Below are positions 143 to 15,904 of a DNA stretch of 20,000 nt, in pieces. The DNA lies in IMG/VR virus record IMGVR_UViG_3300028173_000001. One strand, written 5' to 3'. Positions within the stretch are counted from its first letter, which is position 1; each line of letters begins with the position of its first letter. The stretch comes from an uncultured virus (IMG/VR IMGVR_UViG_3300028173_000001) (lineage: Duplodnaviria; Heunggongvirae; Uroviricota; Caudoviricetes). The notes under the pieces are model-generated. The model did not search any database. It was given only the letters and a program-made list of their open reading frames with translations, and was not told the origin of the DNA. Position numbers and translations under genes: made by a program.

Positions 143-457
143 ATGAAAATAACAGAAAACCAATTACGGAAAGCAATCCGTAAAGAAAAATCAAAAATGA
201 GCGAAGGACGCGTCGGCAAACGAGCGCTAGCCATGCACACCCCCATTGAAACACGATCTGCACTTGAATATCAGGTTGAGAATTTTCTTGAAATTGTAAT
301 GGCCGATGCGGCTGATGAGTTGGGTGATGATGAGGGTGGCGAATTCGCTGAACTTGCCTTGCTAGAAGTAGTCGCGGGGCCAGCAGATACGCTAGGTTAT
401 CTTACCCTTGCCAGGGAGCTAAGGGCAATTGAAACAAAACGGTACTCGCATTACTAA
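143..457 (+). CDS. Small acidic protein with MKITENQLRKAIRKE leader; putative head-internal/virion protein
   Basis: ATG at 143, in frame with track ORF 104..457, preceded by purine-rich AGGA/AGG; N-terminus matches ORFs at 13709 and 13970; stop overlaps the next start (TAATG). Confidence 0.75.
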   Translation: MKITENQLRKAIRKEKSKMSEGRVGKRALAMHTPIETRSALEYQVENFLEIVMADAADELGDDEGGEFAELALLEVVAGPADTLGYLTLARELRAIETKRYSHY

Positions 458-1428
458 TGGCATATCGTTATCCAAAACTTGTTGATGTCCTTTTTGAGGA
501 TGTGACTGACGATATTGCCAAGGCTGCCAAGGGTGGACCCGGTGCAGTACGATCGTTCGTAGACAACCATCCTGACCCGGATGAGTTGAAGGCTGCCCTT
601 CATGGCACTCACGACAATGTCAAAGCGGACGACACGACGAAAGTGTCAAAACCAGCAATGAGACAAATTCGGGATTTCAAACCTACACAGAAAGAAATTG
701 ACATGATGAAGTCGGCGGCGTTTCCATTGGGAAGTGCAAAGGCTCTTGCAAAAGCAATCTCCTCAAACACAACAGACGCTCCCGGCTCAATTACCGTATC
801 AGGCGATGATGTGATCGATGGGCACCATAGATGGTCAGGTGTATGGGCAATCAGTGGACCGGATGGTGTAATCAGCGCCGAAGATTTAGAGCTTCCTGGA
901 GACACAACCCAGAAACTCGCCGCAGCTCAACTTGCCATCGCAGCACACAAAGATCCAAACCAGGATATGCCAACAGCATCAGGAAAGATCGCAAACAACA
1001 TTCTGGGCAAGTCATCGAGCGAAATTGAAAAGATGATGGCAGCAAATGTGGGACGCCAGGTAGACCGTCGAGCCCCCGGCCCAATGCTAAACGATGAAAT
1101 GGTTTCGAACTCATCAAAAGATAAGACCATTGCAAAATGGGCAGGCTTCAAACCAGGTGCTGATCCTAAAGAAGTGATCGTGAAAATCATCAAGAAGATT
1201 TCGGCAAACCTGGCAACTGTGCCAAGCAACACGAAAGCGCCCGCCCGAGAGGATATGCCCCAACTTGACGACAAATCAATTGGCGGTAAAGCTGGAAAGG
1301 CAGCGATTTATGACAAGCTGCAGAACGCTGAAATCAATATCAAAAGCCCATTAAGCCCACAGAAAGAATCTGCTGAGCGTGATGGGAATCTATTGACAGA
1401 GCGTTGGTGCCAATTGGCTAAATGCTAA
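457..1428 (+). CDS. ParB/Sulfiredoxin-like N-terminal-domain protein, putative virion protein
   Basis: 323-aa ORF coupled to the previous gene. PTQKEID...ITVSGDDVIDGHHRW matches the ParB/Srx 'DGHHR' signature. Leader KLVDVLFED; C-terminal LLTERWCQLA. Confidence 0.7.
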   Translation: MAYRYPKLVDVLFEDVTDDIAKAAKGGPGAVRSFVDNHPDPDELKAALHGTHDNVKADDTTKVSKPAMRQIRDFKPTQKEIDMMKSAAFPLGSAKALAKAISSNTTDAPGSITVSGDDVIDGHHRWSGVWAISGPDGVISAEDLELPGDTTQKLAAAQLAIAAHKDPNQDMPTASGKIANNILGKSSSEIEKMMAANVGRQVDRRAPGPMLNDEMVSNSSKDKTIAKWAGFKPGADPKEVIVKIIKKISANLATVPSNTKAPAREDMPQLDDKSIGGKAGKAAIYDKLQNAEINIKSPLSPQKESAERDGNLLTERWCQLAKC

Positions 1429-1807
1429 AGTCTCTGTAGACAGGGACTTTCTTGAATCGATAACATTTACTTGGATCCACGATCGGGGCACCACGCGGGC
1501 TGAACGTTGCGCTAGGAACCCTGTTTTTATACACAACGTAAAAATCATCATCGTTCTGTCTTTCAACAAGCTCTTCAAGCGATAGCATTTCGTCTTTGTG
1601 CGATGAAACGCTTACGGCAACACTTTGCACGGAATCACCAGCAACATAAAAAACAAGACAGGACGGCAACTCAGATTGCATGATATGTGTCCCCAGCATC
1701 GGTGTTTTGCCCAGGAAGTCATTCATATCAGTGTACAGTTCACCCATTTCTTCGTAATCAGGAAGATCCGCCGGCGTGATTATCTTATGTTTTGTTTTGT
1801 GTTTCAT
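1418..1807 (-). CDS. Hypothetical protein (~129 aa, MKHKTKHKIITPADLPDY...)
   Basis: In track ORF 1418..1951; better start is the ATG at 1807 with GAGG Shine-Dalgarno upstream, leaving an AT-rich divergent intergenic gap 1808-1861. Confidence 0.65.
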   Translation of the reverse strand: MKHKTKHKIITPADLPDYEEMGELYTDMNDFLGKTPMLGTHIMQSELPSCLVFYVAGDSVQSVAVSVSSHKDEMLSLEELVERQNDDDFYVVYKNRVPSATFSPRGAPIVDPSKCYRFKKVPVYRDFSI

Positions 1808-1861
1808 AATTTTATTTCCTCTTGAATCATAGTATAATATTTTCATACAGAGGTAAAATAA
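1808..1861. promoter_or_regulatory. Divergent overlapping sigma70-like promoters
   Basis: + strand TATAAT at 1833-1838 ahead of GAGG-ATG 1862. - strand TTTACC-N17-TACTAT ahead of GAGG-ATG 1807. Very AT-rich. Confidence 0.5.
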
Positions 1862-2368
1862 ATGATAAAACCATATCCGACACCAGACCCAGCAGTTATG
1901 CGCAAAATTCTTGATGGAAGCCGACCGCCTGACTACGTGACATATTGGCATCGAATGCCGGGAAGGTATGTCTTAAAAGAGACAGGTGAGGATTGCGCCG
2001 ACGAGGAGGCACGCCCATTGTTTTATGGAACTGTGACAGAGTGGTATTCGATTTTGGCCGAGGCTGTCCACGACGCATGGCGGAAAATAACAGACAACGG
2101 TATAACAGGGATGACATCGGGAATCATTGTTTCACGTGATATTCAAAATGTCCTTGAGGCAACGCATTGGTTTCGCGGAATATACCATCATTGCAGTTGC
2201 TGCACGGCGAAAACAGAATGGCCAGTGATCGGGACTTTAGACGGGATTCCTGTTTATGCCAGCGATGAAGTGGGAAACAAGGTTGTTGTGTTTATGACGG
2301 GTTGCGATAAATGCGATCTTGAAGCCACTGCGGAGATTAGAATTAAAGGAATGGACAGGATCATCTAA
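1862..2368 (+). CDS. Stand-alone protein resembling an internal (A-domain-region) segment of a gp23/HK97-fold major capsid protein
   Basis: GAGG SD. YWHRMPGRYVLKETG...PLFYGTVTEWYSILAEAVHD...IIVSRDIQNVLE...F...VIGTLDGIPVY resembles the gp23-like MCP segment as I recall it (F.GTV.EWYETL.E.I.D...F.V.SP.VA.ILE...VG.L...VY). Not database-verified. Confidence 0.6.
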   Translation: MIKPYPTPDPAVMRKILDGSRPPDYVTYWHRMPGRYVLKETGEDCADEEARPLFYGTVTEWYSILAEAVHDAWRKITDNGITGMTSGIIVSRDIQNVLEATHWFRGIYHHCSCCTAKTEWPVIGTLDGIPVYASDEVGNKVVVFMTGCDKCDLEATAEIRIKGMDRII

Positions 2369-3084
2369 GAATCTTCAGCGATTGAATCTCGAAGTATGTC
2401 CCGTAATGTTTTCCATGCCGGCAACTCTGTTGGTATAATGAATCGGTGATCCGTTTTGATCGCCTGATTGACAATCGAAAAGCGATGCCTCCTGTCACGC
2501 AACGATAACATCTGGACGCCTAGCAGGCTATGCTCCGGATCTTGGTGTGCAGCCTTTGCAGAACCCAACATGCGCCGTAACTCTACCTCAAATTTTACGG
2601 CAGGATCTTTGTTCTGTCTTCTTCTGAAATCATCAGCTTCCCTTCTTTCCCATGCTGAACCATCACCATACCAAGCATCCATGTCAAGTTTATCGTCTGA
2701 CATTGATTTACCCAAAAATTTGAGTTCCCCGGTGTGTTTGATTTTTTCCCAGATGTCATTTTTGATAAGAACCTCAGTTCCCCAGTCGAAACGATGTAAG
2801 CCACCGCTCTTAGCGATAGCCCACTCAGGAACGCGATAAGCATAAACGTGACCAACAATGTGATGGTTGGCTCGAATACCTCGCGGATTGGTCGACATAA
2901 AGATTCCGCCGTCTTCCCGACCTGCTAACCAGTCTCTGCTCCATCCCTCACCTCGACGCTCAGGCCTAACCTGGACAGGTCGTTTATCAATGCGATAGAG
3001 CACACGACTTCCTTTTCTTTCATCCCGGATCTCTTTGAGGACTGACCGGACGAATGTTTCAAATTGTTGATCGCTACGTGACAT
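2365..3084 (-). CDS. Putative ADP-ribosyltransferase-fold protein (R-S-E type) with capsid-targeting-like leader
   Basis: Start MSRSDQQ at 3084, in frame with track ORF 2365..3114. Ordered motifs VLYR, GIFMSTNP, VYAYRV, GTEVLI; leader FETFVRSVLKEIRDE. Confidence 0.55.
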   Translation of the reverse strand: MSRSDQQFETFVRSVLKEIRDERKGSRVLYRIDKRPVQVRPERRGEGWSRDWLAGREDGGIFMSTNPRGIRANHHIVGHVYAYRVPEWAIAKSGGLHRFDWGTEVLIKNDIWEKIKHTGELKFLGKSMSDDKLDMDAWYGDGSAWERREADDFRRRQNKDPAVKFEVELRRMLGSAKAAHQDPEHSLLGVQMLSLRDRRHRFSIVNQAIKTDHRFIIPTELPAWKTLRDILRDSIAEDS

Positions 3085-3089
3085 GCATA

Positions 3090-3096
3090 TAAATAT
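3090..3096 (-). promoter_or_regulatory. Candidate late promoter motif ATATTTA, 5 nt before ATG 3084
   Basis: Reverse strand reads ATATTTA-TATGC-ATG. Confidence 0.5.
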
Positions 3097-3115
3097 ACGT
3101 TTCGCTCTCAGCAAG

Positions 3116-3122
3116 ATATTTA
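3116..3122 (+). promoter_or_regulatory. Candidate late promoter motif ATATTTA
   Basis: Recurrent intergenic ATAnTTA motif; back-to-back with a - strand copy at 3090-3096. Confidence 0.5.
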
Positions 3123-3150
3123 TTTTTGAACTTCAATGGAGAAGAAACAC

Positions 3151-3543
3151 ATGGCTAAAGATACAAAACCAAAATCAACAACAACGACAAAGACAACGCC
3201 CAAAGCAGTTGCTCCGAAGCCAGCAGCTCCGAAGCCTGTCGTAGTAAAAGCGGAAACACCAAAACCTGTTGTTGTCGCTCCTAAAGTTGTGACTCCCAAG
3301 GTCGTAACCCCAGCAGCACCAGATCCGAAAGTCCGCAACAAGAAAATTCATGAGGTCTGCGAAGATATTATGGCAAACGAGTTTTTCGTTCTTTCACATG
3401 CGGAAGCACACCCAATCGCTATAAAAATGGTCGATGAGAATGCTGAGCACCTCCGAACTGTCGTGAAATACTTTTCATACCACGAACGAGAAAAACTATG
3501 CAATGAGCTAGCACAAAAGCATAATCTCACTCGCTCAAAATAG
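3151..3543 (+). CDS. Protein with Lys/Pro/Ala/Val/Thr low-complexity N-terminus (histone H1-like composition) and small helical C-terminal domain
   Basis: PKAVAPKPAAPKPVVVKAETPKPVVVAPKVVTPKVVTP repeats; ATG 3151 follows GGAG (alternative start 3136). Confidence 0.7.
   Translation: MAKDTKPKSTTTTKTTPKAVAPKPAAPKPVVVKAETPKPVVVAPKVVTPKVVTPAAPDPKVRNKKIHEVCEDIMANEFFVLSHAEAHPIAIKMVDENAEHLRTVVKYFSYHEREKLCNELAQKHNLTRSK
3199..3330 (+). repeat. Degenerate coding tandem repeat (PK[P/V]xx units; GCTCCGAAGCC twice)
   Basis: Visible at DNA and protein level. Confidence 0.7.
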
Positions 3544-5394: not shown

Positions 5395-6060
5395 ATGGCA
5401 AGGTTATTTTTATCGCCGCGAGAAATAGATTACATCAACGATGTGAACAAAGAGCTTATCAAGGATGTTGTAGGGCAGAAGATTTATTATTATCCTGTCA
5501 GACCTGACATCATGAAAATCCATGATGTGTATGAAGAATCTCCAAGCAAAGTATTCGATCCGCCAATTGAGATCGAGGCGCGAGTCGACTACAAACCTGA
5601 TGAGAACAGAATCAACCGCTACGGAATCGAAGAGTTTTATACGATTGAGGTATATCTGCATTACAGGGACTTACTAGATCGTGGGATTGAAACGAAAATT
5701 GGCGATTACTTTTCATACGATGTGACGTTCTTTGAGGTAATACAGCACCAGTACGATAACTCAATTTATGGGCAAATTGAACATGTCATGGGCGTGAAAT
5801 TGATGGGTCGTCAGGCAAGAAAAGGCCAGATGTCACAGACACCGCACGGCCCAACGTTCGAAGAGTACACCGATCCGGATGCAGTGCAGGATACATTTGT
5901 CCAGCAACGAGGTTTCGAGGAGAACAGACTCGGGGCGACAGATGATATTCGATCGCTGCAACAAAAAGGTGTTCTAACAGCGCCAATTTCAGGACCAGCC
6001 GAGGTTTCATCGAAGGGCGATGAAACAGACGCAGGATCTTCATTTTACGACGAAAGTTAA
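5395..6060 (+). CDS. Neck/head-closure protein, T4 gp14-like
   Basis: 221 aa between gp13-like and gp15-like genes; ELIKDVVGQKIYYY, VYEES..KVF, KIGDYF..DVTFFEV typical of head-closure proteins. Confidence 0.7.
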   Translation: MARLFLSPREIDYINDVNKELIKDVVGQKIYYYPVRPDIMKIHDVYEESPSKVFDPPIEIEARVDYKPDENRINRYGIEEFYTIEVYLHYRDLLDRGIETKIGDYFSYDVTFFEVIQHQYDNSIYGQIEHVMGVKLMGRQARKGQMSQTPHGPTFEEYTDPDAVQDTFVQQRGFEENRLGATDDIRSLQQKGVLTAPISGPAEVSSKGDETDAGSSFYDES

Positions 6061-7421: not shown

Positions 7422-10400
7422 ATGGCTGAGCAAACATTTCGATCTCCTGGATTTTTCGACCAGGAAATAGACCTATCAGGTCAGCAGGTTGCGCCAACGG
7501 GTGTGCCAGCCGGTGTTGTCGGCACATCTGAGAAAGGACCGGCATTCGTTCCGGTTACTGTCGGATCTTTCGCTGATTTCGAAACAAAATTTGGAACACT
7601 CAACGCAAAGCGGTTTGGTCCATATGCTGTTAAGCAGTGGCTTGACAATAGGACAGCACTTACATATGTGAGATTACTCGGTGCCGGTGCAAATGAGACT
7701 GCGACCGATATTTCAAACACCCGCGGGTCAGGAATTGTCAAGAATGCAGGATTTAGAATTACAGGCAGCGATTCGTTGAATACTGATTTGCCTGGCAGTC
7801 AAGGGCTTGTCCAGTTCATCGTCGCGCGGCATGATGCTGTTGCAAACGATGAAACAAATGGCTACCCGATGTTTACTGACAATAGCAGCATCAACAATGC
7901 ATCGTCTATGAACCTCGTCCGGGGCGCAGTTTTGCTCGCCACTGGCACAAGAATGATGGCGCTAGACAATACAGGAACCTACGCTGATCAGTCTGCGCCC
8001 GGGTACAACTCGGCACTCGTCGGTTCAATTCCATCCAGCCCATTGACACAAAACAAATATTTCAAACTGATTCTTAGCTCTTCGTCTGGAAAAGACTGGG
8101 CGTATGATGAAGGCTATGACGGAATCAAAATTCTGACCGCCTCACTCGATCCCCACGACGCGAACTACATCGGCAAGGTCCTGAACACAGATCCACTCAA
8201 GTTCCAAGAGGAAGAGCATCTGCTTTACCTCGATTTCGCAGTCGAGCATGCACTTGCTCCTGTGATTTCAAGTGTTGTACCAACTGTCGCGTTGGTTTCA
8301 GGTTCAGCGAACAAAAGCACATCCGCCGGAACTCCGGTCGGGTTTATGCAGCTATTCGGTCGATATGATACACGATACCAGACTCCACGAACAACGAATT
8401 TCATCTCACAGCCATATGGTGATGCTGAGTATGACTTGTTCAGTTTTGAAACAATTGACGATGGTGTTTACGCCAACGAAAAATTCAAGGTTTCGATTGC
8501 AGGTCTGCGAGCAAGCACAAACGAAAAACAACCATACGGTTTGTTCGAGGTGCAAATCAGATCATTCGAGGACAGCGACGGCAATTCAGCAATTCTGGAA
8601 AGGTACCCGAACTGCTCACTTGGCCCGAACTCTGAGCGATACGTTGCACGCCTCATTGGCGACAAAAAGGTTCGATTTGATTGGGACCAGGAATCACCAG
8701 ATGAGCGCCGCCTAGTTGTAACAGGAAAATACCCGAACGTTTCGCAGCGTGTTCGGATCGTAATGAATGAGCAGGTTGAGTTGGAGAAGGTTCCAAAAAC
8801 TTCGTTGCCATTCGGTTTCCGGGGAGTTCCGGTCATCAAGACGACTGATACGCTGACTGATAGCTCAACGGCACTTACAGGTCTCAACGGAGAAACAATT
8901 GGTGATGTAACAAGGCGTCGCCTTGGTGTTTACCATACATCAGGCACATCAGTTATGGCCACCACCGGTTCTATCGTACCTCCTCTTCCTTTCCGAGTGA
9001 AAGTGACGAAGGGTGCAGTCCAGGGTATAAGCCCAACATTCCTAGGCGATCCTGGCAGCACAGAACGTGTTGACGGTCGACTATACTGGGGCGTCAAAAC
9101 TGATCCGCTGCCTGTTTCATCAAGCAACGATTCGACACTCGGTATCACTGATGCGGTCCTTCGTTCAAATGAAGGTGCAGGAATCAACCCACTTGTTAGA
9201 ACATACACGAAGTTCCAGGGTATCTCGAAGATGGACAGTTTGGTAACCGGTTCCGGTGCAGACTTCTTCAACGATAACAAATTCACCTTGGCACGAGTGG
9301 CCCTATATAATGCCGCAACACAGCTTTCTGATGTCACGACGCAAGTCACCGGCACAGCCCGAGAGCACATGCTCCAAGCTGCATACGTACGAAATGGTCG
9401 TCCGAACCCATCCACATACACCGTTACTGACGGTGCACGGACAGGACGAATCACCATGGCGTCGTTGATCGCAACATCATCGGCACTGTTCAATCGCTTC
9501 ACCGAGTACCACAAGTTCACAAACGTGTTCTACGGTGGATTTGACGGAACGAACATCCTTGATGAAGACCAAGGATACTTCCGTGACAAAGCATTGTCAT
9601 CTGACACAGGCGGTAAAGCACAACCAACACCCGGAGCCGCAGACAGAATTGGTCTTGCACTAATCGGAACTGCTAACCAGGCGGGCGGCGGACGACTCAA
9701 CAACAATGTTGCATCGATTCGAACCGCTGTGGACATCATCACAAACCCAATCTCATCAAGGATCAACCTGTTGGCAATCCCTGGTGTGAGAGAGCCATTC
9801 GTAACCGACCATGCTTCAGATGCGGTCAAGAAATACGGTCTTGCATTGTATGTTATGGATGCTGTGGAATTCGACAAGAGCTCGAACCGATTGTACGACG
9901 ACTCTGAAGCAAATTCTGATGTCACAAAGACAATTGACCAGTTCGAAACACGTGCGATTGATAACAACTACGTCGCGACATACTTCCCAGATGTTACAAT
10001 CGAGGACAAGGTGAATAACCGGGTCGTTCAGGTTCCACCGTCTGTTGCCGCAATGGGCGCACTAGGTTTCAACGACCGTGTCCAGCAGGTTTGGTTTGCT
10101 CCGGCAGGCTTCAACCGTGGAGCGCTAGGCTTCGTGAAAAACGTTGAGAATAGGTTGTCAGCAAAGGATAGGGATTCTCTATACGATGCTAAAATCAACC
10201 CAATCGCAACGTTCCCACGATCAGGCTACGTAATCTTCGGCCAGAAAACGCTACAGGTTGCACAAACGGCACTAAACAGAATCAACACAAGAAGGATGTT
10301 GATTGACGTAAAGCGAAGGATTCGTTCTATCGCGCAAGGTCTTGCATTCGAACAGAATGATGCGACAACTCGAAAGAAGTTCTCTGCTGATTCAATCCGT

Positions 10401-10589
10401 GAGCTGACATACGTTCAAGCCCGACAGGGAATCGAAGCATTCCAGGTTATTTGTGATGAAAGCAATAACACAAAGGCGGAAATTGACCAGAACAAACTTC
10501 GTGGTCAAATCAAAGTGAAGCCCACCCGAGCGATTGAGTTCATCTCGGTTGACTTCATTATTACAAACAATGGCGTAAGTTTTGAATAA
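7422..10589 (+). CDS. gp18: Contractile tail sheath protein 1 (1055 aa)
   Basis: N-terminal SPGFFDQEIDLS...GVVGTSEKGPAFVPV; C-terminal WFAPAGFNRG, RDSLYDAKINPI, IFGQKTL, LNRINTRRML, KPTRAIEFISVDFII; SD AAGGAG. Confidence 0.95.
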   Translation: MAEQTFRSPGFFDQEIDLSGQQVAPTGVPAGVVGTSEKGPAFVPVTVGSFADFETKFGTLNAKRFGPYAVKQWLDNRTALTYVRLLGAGANETATDISNTRGSGIVKNAGFRITGSDSLNTDLPGSQGLVQFIVARHDAVANDETNGYPMFTDNSSINNASSMNLVRGAVLLATGTRMMALDNTGTYADQSAPGYNSALVGSIPSSPLTQNKYFKLILSSSSGKDWAYDEGYDGIKILTASLDPHDANYIGKVLNTDPLKFQEEEHLLYLDFAVEHALAPVISSVVPTVALVSGSANKSTSAGTPVGFMQLFGRYDTRYQTPRTTNFISQPYGDAEYDLFSFETIDDGVYANEKFKVSIAGLRASTNEKQPYGLFEVQIRSFEDSDGNSAILERYPNCSLGPNSERYVARLIGDKKVRFDWDQESPDERRLVVTGKYPNVSQRVRIVMNEQVELEKVPKTSLPFGFRGVPVIKTTDTLTDSSTALTGLNGETIGDVTRRRLGVYHTSGTSVMATTGSIVPPLPFRVKVTKGAVQGISPTFLGDPGSTERVDGRLYWGVKTDPLPVSSSNDSTLGITDAVLRSNEGAGINPLVRTYTKFQGISKMDSLVTGSGADFFNDNKFTLARVALYNAATQLSDVTTQVTGTAREHMLQAAYVRNGRPNPSTYTVTDGARTGRITMASLIATSSALFNRFTEYHKFTNVFYGGFDGTNILDEDQGYFRDKALSSDTGGKAQPTPGAADRIGLALIGTANQAGGGRLNNNVASIRTAVDIITNPISSRINLLAIPGVREPFVTDHASDAVKKYGLALYVMDAVEFDKSSNRLYDDSEANSDVTKTIDQFETRAIDNNYVATYFPDVTIEDKVNNRVVQVPPSVAAMGALGFNDRVQQVWFAPAGFNRGALGFVKNVENRLSAKDRDSLYDAKINPIATFPRSGYVIFGQKTLQVAQTALNRINTRRMLIDVKRRIRSIAQGLAFEQNDATTRKKFSADSIRELTYVQARQGIEAFQVICDESNNTKAEIDQNKLRGQIKVKPTRAIEFISVDFIITNNGVSFE

Positions 10590-10615: not shown

Positions 10616-13600
10616 ATGGCAGAATTCACTTTTCCAGTTAGTCCGGGCGTAGTGGCGAATGAAATTGACCTTTCAGGACCCACACAGGTTTCTCCCTCTG
10701 GAATTCCTGCAGGTGTTGTAGGAACGTCAGTACGAGGTCCTGCTTTCGTCCCAGTGACTATGGCAACATTTCAAGACTTTATTTCAACGTTCGGGAATAG
10801 CGACGGCACAAAATTTGGACCGATTGCAATGCGTGAATGGTTGAGGAACGCCGATTCGGGTGTATTCGTTCGTGTTCTTGGTGCCGGTGACGGTTCTGCA
10901 AGGCTCTCGACGGGTAACAACCAGGGCAAGGTAACCAACGCAGGATTTGTTGTTGGTGATAGGCTTGTCCAGTCAAACGGGCTCGTCGGCGATAACTCAT
11001 ATTCAGGTGCTGAAAACTTACCAGGTGGAGCGCTCGGCCGTTCATACATGCTGGCAGCTATCATGTCTGAGTCAAACGGTTCAACATACCTTAGCGACGC
11101 TGGCATCCAGAAGAACGTCAACGCAACTCCGATTCTCCGTGGTATGCTAATGGCACCTTCTGGTGTTATCCCGGCATTGAGTCACTCACTTGACCTTGCT
11201 GGTAACATGGCTCCGGCTGCAAACGAAGCCGCTTATCCATCATTTGGCGGATCAGGTGTCGGTAATGCTGGCGGAAACATTGGTAGCGTCGATGTTAGTA
11301 ACTCGAAGCAGGAGTTCGTTCTCCTATTCAACGGTCACAAAAATAACGCAACATACAAGAATGTTGTTACGGCATCATTCGACCCCAGCGTTCCAAACTA
11401 CTTCGTAAACGTGCTCAACACAGACCCATTGAAAATCGAAGATGCTGGGCATTATCTATATACGCACTACGATATCGATCCAGCACTTGCTGTTGCGACC
11501 GGTACAAGCGTGATCAACCCAACAGTCTGGTTCACAAATCTTGAGCCAGTTGCTTTGCTTTTGACTTCGACACTCAACCGGGACGTAGGTTCTGCAACAT
11601 CGGCAACAACCGTTGGTGTACCTAACTTCGAGAACTTCGAGGACAGGTTTGAGGCGGCATTCAGTCCATTCGTCGTATCACAGAAATTCGGTGGCGCAAA
11701 CAAGGATTTGTTCAGACTAACAACATTGTCTGACGGTCTCATCGGTGCAGGCGAAGTCAAGGTCACGATTGAAAACATCGCGGCTTCATCAAAGGCGAAT
11801 AATAAGTACGGCACTTTCGATGTGTTGATTCGACGCTTCACAGACAACGATTTGAACCCAGCAGTTCTGGAATCATTCAGAGGCTTGAGTTTGGATCCGT
11901 CGTCTGACAACTACATTGCAAAGCGAATCGGTGACCAGCGAACATACTTCGACTTCGAAGCAGCAACTGGAAACCAGAAGATCGTTGTCGAAGGTGATTA
12001 CCCAAGCGTTTCAAACTACGTCCGAGTGACGTTGAGTAGCGACTTGAAGAATGATCGATTGGACCCAACGGCATTGCCAACAGGTTTCCGTGGAATTCAT
12101 CACTTGATTACGTCAGGCACAACAATCGCAGGAACAGCAGGCTCAATCCTAACAGGAAGCTTTGCCACATTGCGAGGTTCGATGTCAGCCAGCATTTCAT
12201 CTGATCTGCTCAAACGGGTTGTTCAGCCTCCTATCCCAATGCGTGAGTCGATCTCTACCGGTGCTTCACCAAAGAAAAACGTCCAGCAGTCATTCACATG
12301 GGGAATCCAATTCGAAACGAAGACAAGCGTTTCACTTCCTAACAAGAATGAAAAACTGGATGCATCGTTGCTATCCTTCACAAGGTATTACCCGAAATTC
12401 CACACAAGTTGGCAGAACCCACTAGTCGGTGATAATGCTGGAGCTGCTGACGTGGGCGGAACGATTTTCGACGCTGACCGTTTCAACAACAACTTCTTCT
12501 CTCTTGAGAGGGTGCAGGTTATTACTGGATCGAATGACAGGCCAGACCCACAACAGTGGGCAGCTGCTTCGTATCGCCGAAATGGAACGCAGGCATCATC
12601 GCTTGATGACCGTGACGGAACTTCGAAGACCAACGTTCGATTCTTGGATTCAACTAAGGATTTTGCGCACATTCCAAGCCAGAAATACTTGAAGTTCACA
12701 TTCCCACTCCAGGGCGGATATGACGGAACCAACGTATTTGACTCTGAGAAATCGAAATTCACCGATACGGCTGTTCGTCGTGAGATGGATGACTCGACTT
12801 TGCAGGGCGGCAAGAACGGACCAACCGTTGCAGCGTTGCGAAAAGCAGTCGACGTGATGGAAGCAAAACAGGATGTTGACATTCAGTTGTTGGCAATCCC
12901 TGGACTTCGTCACTCATCTGTTACAGACTACGCAATCGAATCAGTCGAACGACGATTTGATGCATTGTATGTCATGGACATCGAGGAAAAGGACGAAGTT
13001 AACACGTTCGTGACATCATCAGCTCAGGTAATCAGCGTGACGAACACGGTCAACGCTTTCCAATCGAGGGCTTTGGATTCATCGTTTGCGGCAGCATACT
13101 TCCCAGACGTGGTAATTCAGGATGTTGCAACCAAGACGAATGTGAAAGCACCGTCTTCGGCTGTTGTTCTTGGTGCCATGGCACTGAATGATGCAATTGG
13201 TCATCCTTGGTTCGCACCTGCAGGCTTCTCACGAGGTGCTTTGCAGAGTGCATTGTATCCAACGGTTGAGCTTCTACAGGCAAATCGTGATGCACTTTAC
13301 AGCGCTGATGTCAACCCAATCATCGGTGACGTCCAGGCAAATTCCGGAGTAACCGTATTCGGCCAGAAAACATTGCTTGCAGCACAGAGCGCTCTCGACC
13401 GTGTGAACGTACGACGTTTGCTAATCGACATTCGTAGAAAGGTCAGAGATGTGGCACGAACATTCTTGTTTGAGCCAAACCAGGCATCTACAATCGCATC
13501 ATTTGAAGCGAGGGTACAACCGATCTTGGCAGCCGTCCAGTCACAAGGTGGGTTGGATAGATTCAAGGTCAAGATTGACGCGTCGACAACGACACAGGCT

Positions 13601-13699
13601 GACATTGAGAATAACACCATCCGCGGTAAAATCTTCTTACAGCCAACAAAATCAATCGAGTTCGTCTCGCTTGACTTCGTGGTAAGCAACAATATCTAG
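10616..13699 (+). CDS. gp18: Contractile tail sheath protein 2 (1027 aa), paralogue of the preceding gene
   Basis: SPGVVANEIDLS...GPAFVPV; PWFAPAGFSRG, RDALYSADVNPI, FGQKTL, LDRVNVRRLL, FLFEPN, QPTKSIEFVSLDF; SD AGGAG. Confidence 0.95.
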   Translation: MAEFTFPVSPGVVANEIDLSGPTQVSPSGIPAGVVGTSVRGPAFVPVTMATFQDFISTFGNSDGTKFGPIAMREWLRNADSGVFVRVLGAGDGSARLSTGNNQGKVTNAGFVVGDRLVQSNGLVGDNSYSGAENLPGGALGRSYMLAAIMSESNGSTYLSDAGIQKNVNATPILRGMLMAPSGVIPALSHSLDLAGNMAPAANEAAYPSFGGSGVGNAGGNIGSVDVSNSKQEFVLLFNGHKNNATYKNVVTASFDPSVPNYFVNVLNTDPLKIEDAGHYLYTHYDIDPALAVATGTSVINPTVWFTNLEPVALLLTSTLNRDVGSATSATTVGVPNFENFEDRFEAAFSPFVVSQKFGGANKDLFRLTTLSDGLIGAGEVKVTIENIAASSKANNKYGTFDVLIRRFTDNDLNPAVLESFRGLSLDPSSDNYIAKRIGDQRTYFDFEAATGNQKIVVEGDYPSVSNYVRVTLSSDLKNDRLDPTALPTGFRGIHHLITSGTTIAGTAGSILTGSFATLRGSMSASISSDLLKRVVQPPIPMRESISTGASPKKNVQQSFTWGIQFETKTSVSLPNKNEKLDASLLSFTRYYPKFHTSWQNPLVGDNAGAADVGGTIFDADRFNNNFFSLERVQVITGSNDRPDPQQWAAASYRRNGTQASSLDDRDGTSKTNVRFLDSTKDFAHIPSQKYLKFTFPLQGGYDGTNVFDSEKSKFTDTAVRREMDDSTLQGGKNGPTVAALRKAVDVMEAKQDVDIQLLAIPGLRHSSVTDYAIESVERRFDALYVMDIEEKDEVNTFVTSSAQVISVTNTVNAFQSRALDSSFAAAYFPDVVIQDVATKTNVKAPSSAVVLGAMALNDAIGHPWFAPAGFSRGALQSALYPTVELLQANRDALYSADVNPIIGDVQANSGVTVFGQKTLLAAQSALDRVNVRRLLIDIRRKVRDVARTFLFEPNQASTIASFEARVQPILAAVQSQGGLDRFKVKIDASTTTQADIENNTIRGKIFLQPTKSIEFVSLDFVVSNNI

Positions 13700-15081: not shown

Positions 15082-15108
15082 AGTGTCATAGGGAGGGACT
15101 ATGTTTTT
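15057..15108 (+). terminator. Long hairpin plus U-tract; candidate intrinsic terminator of tail-tube mRNA that also sequesters the HNH SD and start codon
   Basis: Perfect 14-bp inverted repeat ACATAGTCCCTCCC (15057-15070) / GGGAGGGACTATGT (15091-15104), followed by TTTT. Confidence 0.7.
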
Positions 15109-15904
15109 ATGTCCAAGTTGTAATTACAAAACTGAAAAAATTAACTCATTGCGTATTCATGCACAAAAAGCGCATAAGCTTTCAAGCGAGGCAATATATC
15201 TGGCTGCAGTTGTCAAGCATAAACAGCCTACGTGTGCTTGTGGTTGCATGTCAAAGACAAAATTCCATGGAATCACAAAAGGATATTCAAAGTTTTGCCC
15301 AGGTCATCAAGCGCGTATCAAAAATAACTGGGGCCACAATGAAAACGCACAAAAGAAAAGCCAGGCTTCCCGGCGGGAAATGTTGAAATCTGGAGAAATG
15401 ATTGTCTGGAATAAAGGGATAACGAAGCATGATGATGAAAGACTCCGCATTGCCGGAAGATCGGTCGCAAAAACATGGACAACCGAAAAACGAGAAAAGT
15501 ATAGCAAAATAATGTCAAAAAATAGATTGGCCGGTATTATTCCATCTTTGACAGGATCAGAACACCCGCAATGGAAAGGCGGAACGTCAACAATCGGTGC
15601 TCTTTGCCATTCAAATAACCGACTATACAGCGAATGGAAATTTCCAAAGCTCGCCGCAGCAAAATTCAAGTGTGAAAGATGCTCAAGCACAACAAAATTG
15701 CACATCCATCATGATAAAGAAAAAATGGCAGCGATAATCAAGAAGTTCCGCAGTGACGTTGATTGTCATGTCTTGACACCAGAACAAAATAGAATAATCG
15801 TTGAAAAAGTGATTGATTACCACACGTCACAAAATGTATCCGGAATCGTTCTATGTAAGATTTGCCACGGGCACGAACATCCATCTTTGAACTTTGACAA
15901 CTAG
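15101..15904 (+). CDS. Free-standing HNH homing endonuclease with C2H2 zinc finger and NUMOD3-like DNA-binding motifs
   Basis: CPSC...IHAQKAH finger; CACGC...FCPGH; WNKG and HPQWKGG motifs; C-terminal CERC...LHIHH...N..GIVLCKICHGHEH; more AT-rich than flanking structural genes. Confidence 0.85.
   Translation: MFLCPSCNYKTEKINSLRIHAQKAHKLSSEAIYLAAVVKHKQPTCACGCMSKTKFHGITKGYSKFCPGHQARIKNNWGHNENAQKKSQASRREMLKSGEMIVWNKGITKHDDERLRIAGRSVAKTWTTEKREKYSKIMSKNRLAGIIPSLTGSEHPQWKGGTSTIGALCHSNNRLYSEWKFPKLAAAKFKCERCSSTTKLHIHHDKEKMAAIIKKFRSDVDCHVLTPEQNRIIVEKVIDYHTSQNVSGIVLCKICHGHEHPSLNFDN

Follow-up and report, generated by a model that had tools for sequence, protein, structure and literature searches.

The 20,000-nucleotide stretch of DNA analyzed here (the window) corresponds to positions 127416 to 147415 of G000:C1, read on the minus strand, within the 318,267-bp record of a marine jumbo phage (IMG/VR IMGVR_UViG_3300028173_000001), and near-identical DNA was found in seawater and marine metagenome runs from 15 studies. 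One of its genes, an open reading frame (ORF) of 168 amino acids (aa) that we call ORF168, very probably encodes a functional paralog of the virus's major capsid protein (MCP) that retains only the axial (A) domain of the HK97 fold and that belongs to an old, fast-evolving family of similar proteins, referred to below as mini-MCPs or minis. A first-pass annotation, made from the letters alone, had described this gene as a stand-alone copy of the MCP A domain, and the homology searches reported here uphold that description.

Homology of ORF168 to the MCP and predicted fold

The virus's own MCP is a gp23-type protein of 632 aa (G000:C1 152842-154740); the ORF before it encodes an acidic, scaffold-like protein of 580 aa. 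Its closest relatives in GenBank belong to Flavobacterium phages, a Microcystis phage, and metagenomic huge phages, with 42 to 54% identity over the C-terminal 40% of the protein. Residues 28 to 105 of ORF168 match residues 446 to 526 of this MCP with 31% identity over 81 aa (BLASTP; E = 1e-12), and a hidden Markov model (HMM) built from 60 full-length MCPs of the clade detected ORF168 with an E value of 3.5e-18 among the 4,091 stop-to-stop ORFs of the genome. When ORF168 was compared with 1.84e9 proteins by phmmer, 69 matches were obtained at E ≤ 1e-3, including 15 MCPs of 536 to 669 aa. The Pfam family Gp23 (PF07068) alone is subthreshold for ORF168 (E = 0.089; 12.6 bits versus a cutoff of 24.4), so that routine annotation would miss the resemblance to the MCP. 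A PHROGs search gave no match, and a sequence search of the PDB returned nothing at E ≤ 10.

The profile of the mini-MCP family aligns to MCP positions 434 to 573 (E = 2e-46), and its last 14 positions align to MCP 618 to 631, a match that is not significant alone. ORF168 is therefore an A-domain region joined directly to the C-terminal strand of the MCP. Neither the N-terminal propeptide with the N-arm nor the E-loop is present, and the large insertion and P-domain segment 574 to 617, which is highly conserved in MCPs, are missing as well. It thus lacks the complete HK97 fold, which consists of N-arm, E-loop, P domain, and A domain, and the absence of these parts from the profile alignment agrees with the earlier claim that the protein cannot form a shell by itself. 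The gene starts with ATG and an in-frame TAA lies immediately 5' of it, which makes an N-terminal extension impossible.

An AlphaFold2 model of ORF168 is a single alpha/beta domain with a predicted local distance difference test score (pLDDT) of 87.2 and a predicted template modeling score of 0.84. In a Foldseek search with this model, the ten top-ranked PDB rows were all HK97-fold capsid proteins, although one match only was at E ≤ 1e-3 and lower rows included unrelated folds. The structure search of the ESM Atlas returned Gp23 clusters with template modeling (TM) scores of 0.63 to 0.65.

ORF168 also contains cysteines and histidines that had been pointed out as extra to the MCP. Six of them (H109, C111, C113, C114, C148, and C151) do not vary among the sequences compared (5 of 5), four of which are distinct, as the row of the ortholog at IMG/VR locus L007 is letter-identical to that of database protein P0001; H110 is variable. 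The extra H-x-C-x-C-C loop is probably a structural metal site that compensates for the deleted segment.

Selection on ORF168 and its upstream region

Orthologs of ORF168 were found as three database proteins and at two IMG/VR loci; one locus is 100% identical, the others are 84 to 85% identical, and all are intact, as the first-pass annotation had proposed to check in related phages. Between ORF168 and its L007 ortholog, the nonsynonymous divergence (dN) is 0.088 and the synonymous divergence (dS) is 0.95, a dN/dS of 0.093, compared with 0.015 to 0.065 for four neighboring genes. Selection on ORF168 is purifying and somewhat looser than that on its neighbors.

The short region between ORF168 and the divergent gene upstream of it is more conserved still. 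A run of 49 consecutive bases, which includes the TATAAT box and the ribosome-binding site, is identical between window positions 1808 to 1861 and L007 positions 5947 to 6000, whereas the flanking genes differ between the two at about 18% of bases. With the synonymous sites of ORF168 near saturation, neutral evolution would not be expected to leave so much of this intergenic region unchanged. Contigs from four marine DNA runs (four studies) had zero differences from window positions 1400 to 3200, with one piece spanning the entire ORF168, and they consequently provide no population variation for a selection test. No RNA data sets covering the same interval were listed.

A family of mini-MCPs

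Among the 69 phmmer matches, 40 are 240 aa or shorter. We inspected 38 of the shorter matches (121 to 256 aa), of which 32 follow one plan and 6 are fragments or chimeras of full MCPs. In the common plan, the initiator methionine lies a few to about 25 residues before a W-x-R-x-P-G strand, some members having a longer N-terminal extension; there follow a conserved G-T-V-x-E-W-Y-E-T-L helix and the A-domain sheet, with no P-domain excursion, and the protein ends in the C-terminal strand of the MCP. As delimited here, a mini-MCP is a protein of 125 to 240 aa that begins shortly before the W-x-R-x-P-G strand, lacks the segment equivalent to MCP 574 to 617, and ends in the MCP C-terminal strand. 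ORF168 has all of these features. The members come from uncultured phages that have MCPs of this type.

The minis keep W447, R449, P451, G452, G477, W482, Y483, L486, and E488 (MCP numbering), residues that show little or no variation among 32 MCPs, and with them the motifs W-x-R-x-P-G and G-T-V-x-E-W-Y-x-x-L. They have lost two other elements that are invariant in MCPs, the I497-R499-T501-L502-G504 loop (H-R-K-T-L-R-G) and the D559-P-Y-F-x-R564 motif (D-P-Y-F-P-R-N), and every lattice-forming element is missing from them.

When 42 minis were placed in a tree with the A-domain regions of 33 MCPs, all MCPs fell beyond one branch with a Shimodaira-Hasegawa-like approximate likelihood ratio test (SH-aLRT) value of 90. 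The tree came from a quick search on 167 columns, and five MCP rows missed by the motif pattern (a regular expression) were dropped from it. End branches measure 0.5 to 2.2 for minis versus 0.05 to 0.3 for most MCPs. ORF168 and its orthologs are sister to P0004 (40% identity) and fall into a subclade with a G-C-D-x-C turn at the deletion joint, which also includes P0005, P0011, and a second paralog encoded in the same genome (C1 209348-209836; 27% identity to ORF168, E = 8e-11).

Existing resources register this family poorly. Pfam Gp23 was reached at E ≤ 1e-3 by 6 of 29 aligned members and phrog_138 by 4 of 29, and neither Pfam nor PHROG has a dedicated model for the minis. Our literature searches returned no description of stand-alone A-domain paralogs of MCPs, and a deep, diverse A-domain-only family does not seem to have been described previously.

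The distribution of minis is patchy. Searches with ORF168, P0179, and P0153 by tblastn found no mini in 50,697 GenBank phage records, and the related GenBank phage records have a full MCP only (mini in 0 of 4). No mini was present at 185 of 197 loci with a profile match or in 76 of 79 metagenome loci, and alignment-based locus searches yielded almost exclusively full-length MCPs. No relatives were obtained with P0153, P0011, and P0051 in viral contigs, with P0004 in genome contigs, or with P0051 in metagenome contigs; in viral contigs, P0004 gave only MCP-like matches, and P0009 led only to the L098 locus again and to one similar contig.

There are also C-terminal halves of full MCPs that keep the P-domain segment and are called as separate proteins of 266 to 316 aa (P0158, P0152, P0171, P0128, and P0160, on contigs of 17 to 269 kb). 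These could be split MCP genes, the result of intron or endonuclease insertions, or gene-calling artifacts.

Genomic contexts of the minis

A distance of 7.3 kb, with about a dozen ORFs, separates ORF168 from the MCP gene upstream, and ORF168 is flanked by small genes for putative internal head proteins on one side and by neck genes on the other. Minis elsewhere occur in two other kinds of surroundings. In six IMG/VR loci of a clade with MCPs of 637 to 643 aa (L180, L181, L184, L186, L188, and L189), one or two minis directly follow the MCP gene on the same strand, in the order protease, ~700-aa gene, MCP, mini(s).

The remaining contexts, at loci retrieved by way of the minis themselves, are sugar-modification gene clusters. 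L097, L205, and L206 have one gene order in common: a group 1 glycosyltransferase (GT), two or three methyltransferases, a ~330-aa protein, the mini, sometimes a homing endonuclease, and a UDP-glucose dehydrogenase. The ~330-aa gene matches Glyco_trans_1_2 at a weak E value in L097, and the start of the mini overlaps or abuts the upstream stop. At L098, the mini stands between a Glyco_trans_1_2-like gene, preceded by genes for a DegT aminotransferase, a GNAT protein, and a formyltransferase, and a UDP-glucose dehydrogenase gene. The second paralog of our genome abuts two Glycos_transf_1 genes, one of which also scores above the cutoff for "GT4 in conflict systems" of Pfam (31 versus 26 bits); farther away are genes for a PD-(D/E)XK nuclease, a cupin, a cytidylyltransferase, PfkB, DegT, a GDP-mannose dehydratase, and an epimerase. 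A 323-aa ORF upstream of ORF168 was considered as a counterpart of the ~330-aa GT-like partners and rejected as unrelated.

Between L097 and L206, neighboring genes are 49 to 72% identical and the minis 37% identical over 150 aa, differing in addition by an N-terminal domain, so that the mini is the fastest-evolving gene at these loci. GIY-YIG and TnsA-like endonuclease genes adjoin the minis in L097, L189, and L206.

Expression signals

Three motifs are enriched in the 100-nt windows upstream of 435 crude genes of the genome. One, [GA]ATA[TC]TTA, has 48 matches at about -13 to -38, including those of the MCP (-28), the scaffold (-25), and neck genes. Another, CGTGTAA[AG]A, sits at a fixed distance of ~23 nt upstream of TGGTATAAT, and such pairs cluster at C1 252 to 294 kb, where small genes form a block. 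From the analogy to T4-like phages, we infer that [GA]ATA[TC]TTA may mark late promoters and the CGTGTAA pair early promoters.

The Shine-Dalgarno sequence and TATAAT box that the first-pass annotation assigned to ORF168 are both in place (Table 1), and the late motif is absent from the 150 nt upstream of the gene, as had been stated. With regard to the proposed transcription by the host RNA polymerase, the upstream region has a bare TAGTATAAT at -30 only, without the TG and the CGTGTAA element of the early-type promoters, and a generic scan for sigma-70 promoters and terminators over window positions 1300 to 3300 found no more sites than in shuffled sequences. A 9-mer, ATCATAGTA, occurs upstream of both paralogs and has 3 occurrences in the genome. 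We estimate the chance of such sharing at ~1%, and as a common signal the 9-mer is at most a weak hint.

Neighboring genes and other ORFs with MCP segments

ORF168 is the middle gene of a three-gene island in which the outer two are transcribed from the opposite strand (Table 1). The sole lead to the function of the 249-aa ORF (2365-3114, -) comes from a feature comparison, in which a rifampin ADP-ribosyltransferase cluster was weakly similar (score 0.89, rank 15); the ESM Atlas version of this protein begins at residue 11.

Five further ORFs of the genome resemble other segments of the MCP, with E values of 1.8e-7 to 6.5e-4 against the clade MCP profile among the 4,091 ORFs (Table 1). The two that resemble the N terminus are paralogous to each other, and the first of them has a 75%-identical ortholog in L007. 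The MCP 572 to 595 peptide at the end of the 112-aa ORF falls within the segment that minis lack. We considered whether ORF168 and the N-terminal mimic 2.1 kb upstream could be exons of a split second MCP gene and rejected this: both are complete ORFs with separate start and stop codons, the ORFs between them are not related to the MCP, and its central part is not encoded.

Table 1. Coordinates of ORF168, its parts and neighbors (window positions), and of other ORFs with MCP segments (C1 positions)
Feature	Position	Strand	Basis or remarks
ORF168, stand-alone MCP A-domain protein (mini-MCP), 168 aa plus stop	1862..2368	+	Homology; orthologs 84 to 85% identical; dN/dS 0.093 versus L007
Core stretch, residues 26 to 106: strand, loop, long helix, strand, helix	1937..2179	+	Aligned to MCP profile positions 416 to 496 (own MCP ~446 to 526); secondary structure from model
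H109-H110-C111-S112-C113-C114 cluster	2186..2203	+	Lowest-confidence loop of model; block pLDDT 63
C148-D-K-C151 ("GCDxC" turn)	2303..2314	+	At the joint where MCP segment 574 to 617 is missing; common to second paralog, P0004, P0005, and P0011
Divergent intergenic region, 54 nt	1808..1861		TATAAT 1833-1838; GAGGT 1850-1854
129-aa ORF, divergently transcribed from ORF168	1421..1807	-	No family match; syntenic in L007
249-aa ORF, convergent with ORF168	2365..3114	-	No family match
N-terminal propeptide/N-arm mimics (two)	C1 148352-147663; 304097-303570		Profile positions 16 to 86, E ~2e-7; 36% identical to each other
112-aa ORF ending in MCP 572 to 595 peptide (P-domain strand)	C1 86721-86386		E 3.7e-8
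108-aa ORF ending in MCP 95 to 123 peptide (N-arm/E-loop start)	C1 103549-103226		E 3.6e-4
ORF resembling MCP 390 to 473 (spine-helix region)	C1 102369-101902		E 6.5e-4

The window also contains T4-like morphogenesis genes, namely, those for a head-tail adaptor-like protein, a gp15-like protein, a gp19-type tube protein, and a baseplate hub. Two tail-sheath paralogs of 1,055 and 1,027 aa lie in tandem (7422-10589 and 10616-13699, both +), and both match sheath C-terminal domains and phrog_23. Between the MCP and neck genes, at least six small ORFs begin near-identically with M-K-I-T-E-[ST/N]-Q-L-R-K-x-[IV]-[RK]-E (window 143-457 on the + strand, at an internal methionine of ORF 104-457, and G000:C1 149775-151699 on the - strand). 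This shared N terminus looks like a capsid-targeting or protease-cleaved leader of internal head proteins, for which the internal proteins of T4 are an analog.

Two ORFs have C2H2-type zinc-finger features. One, of 360 aa (G000:C1 151732-152814, -), lies directly downstream of the MCP, contains C2H2-type zinc-finger-like motifs, and has a C terminus that appears endonuclease-like by eye; the other, of 267 aa (window 15101-15904, +), has an N-terminal C2H2 finger and stands among tail genes. Both are possible homing endonucleases.

Discussion

We tentatively favor, at somewhat less than an even chance, the reading that ORF168 is a mimic of the capsomer interface that binds unassembled MCP. The protein would imitate one side only, the capsomer-forming face of the MCP subunit, since motifs that are invariant in MCPs are kept while other invariant motifs and the lattice elements are lost. 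Its targets may be the unassembled MCP or the nascent capsomers of the phage that encodes it, and, being unable to propagate a shell, it would serve as escort, cap, or adaptor. In relatives, such an MCP-binding module could bring something to the capsid protein or hold it there. An MCP-binding module would be consistent with the GT-like coupling, with the additional N-terminal domains, and with the location behind the MCP gene, and the placement of minis after MCP genes or in coupling with GT genes points to a role in capsid assembly or capsid modification.

Several observations weigh against this proposal. The retained motifs could simply be the core of the fold, and rapid evolution, paralogy, and a patchy distribution would be expected of conflict genes just as much as of adaptors. 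The late motif used by the MCP is absent before ORF168, so the two genes need not be coexpressed. The neighbors of ORF168 have no family match and include no glycosyltransferase, independent sugar-cluster contexts number only three, and the MCP-adjacent class is subject to ascertainment bias because those loci were fetched through MCP matches.

The main rival hypothesis, which sharpens an idea of the first-pass annotation and which we consider less likely, is that ORF168 serves as an immune decoy or shield. According to a 2026 preprint (10.64898/2026.01.04.697583), the A-domain face is the surface that several bacterial sensors (Avs7/8/10- and Dsr1-type) read on MCP monomers, which makes an A-domain decoy mechanistically conceivable. 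A free A domain would titrate these sensors or block their access to the capsomer-forming face of monomeric MCP while lacking the P-domain and E-loop contacts needed for activation. The family is small, fast-evolving, paralogous, and patchy; ORF168 has no late motif; the genome also carries ORFs with other MCP segments; and one glycosyltransferase next to the second paralog matches the conflict-system family described above, all of which would suit a decoy. However, a sensor should be triggered rather than silenced by a faithful mimic of the surface it reads, and it is not obvious why a decoy would be translationally coupled to GT-like genes or encoded right behind the MCP. An extension of this idea is that the minis and the other MCP-segment ORFs together form a counterdefense suite of self-mimics covering several MCP epitopes, in which the A domain masks or competes for the sensed face. 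We regard this as unlikely; if true, it would represent counterdefense by fragmentation of the protein of the phage that is sensed most.

It is considerably less probable that ORF168 is a minor component of the virion, such as a reduced gp24-like vertex paralog or a decoration protein at capsomer centers, vertices, or the portal vertex. The position of minis directly downstream of the MCP in six loci, after the protease, the ~700-aa gene, and the MCP, resembles that in T4, in which gene 24 occupies this slot; the genome has no second full-length MCP paralog (clade HMM, 4,091 ORFs), and ORF168 itself lies within the head-neck gene block. A weapon against competing phages or satellites, that is, a dominant-negative A domain that poisons the capsomers of related viruses while the phage's own MCP is insensitive, would account for the retained MCP motifs, the impossibility of lattice extension, and the fast evolution, but we judge it very unlikely: no foreign MCP is closer to ORF168 than its own (31%), the best full-length matches being 30 to 39% identical at E ~1e-8 or weaker, and no exclusion-type context was seen. 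The possibility that ORF168 is nonfunctional, either left over from a partial duplication of the MCP gene or debris of homing endonucleases, is largely refuted, and we give it hardly any credence. The zinc-finger ORF with a nuclease-like appearance adjoining the MCP gene, the endonuclease genes (GIY-YIG/TnsA-like) beside minis in three loci, and the scattering of MCP-segment ORFs over the genome would be in keeping with such an origin, but the orthologs are intact, dN/dS is 0.093 with synonymous sites near saturation, start and end points are identical across a deep family, and the upstream region is conserved.

ORF168 differs from the known systems that are closest to it. T4 gp24, a paralog of gp23 (PDB 1yue), is a full HK97-fold subunit that forms pentons, whereas ORF168 is an A domain only; the gp24 slot directly downstream of the MCP is occupied by the minis of L180 to L189 but not by ORF168, which is 7.3 kb away and has no late motif. 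Relative to gp23 itself (PF07068), ORF168 covers about a quarter of the MCP and falls below the Pfam cutoff. The MCP homologs of satellites (Ccm of phage-inducible chromosomal islands) redirect the capsid size of the helper; they are full-length HK97-fold proteins and are encoded by the satellite. Under the proposed mechanism, ORF168 would be like Ccm in being an MCP-like protein that acts on the assembly of another MCP and does not form a normal shell alone, and unlike it in consisting of one domain and in being encoded by the phage itself. An archaeal protein of 94 aa and of unknown function, PF0899 of Pyrococcus furiosus (PDB 2pk8), has no detectable sequence relation to ORF168.

The link of minis to glycosyltransferases is known by gene neighborhood alone and does not extend to ORF168 itself. 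As cited in PMC12619734, phage glycosyltransferases modify capsid subunits of mycobacteriophages (Freeman et al. 2023), which offers a precedent for an MCP-like module in a GT cluster, although no MCP-fragment partner was seen to be described there. The same source describes four core glycosyltransferase groups in aquatic Bacteroidota jumbo phages, and the word "paralog" does not occur in it.

The MCP paralogs known so far, among them gp24 and the satellite proteins that redirect capsid size, are shell subunits of full length, and the A-domain-only architecture of ORF168 and its relatives differs from these. Because the A-domain face both builds capsomers and is, according to the preprint, read by several sensors, a naturally occurring free A domain would be a ready-made probe of how large T4-like capsids control the assembly and modification of their MCPs and of whether phages blunt capsid sensing.
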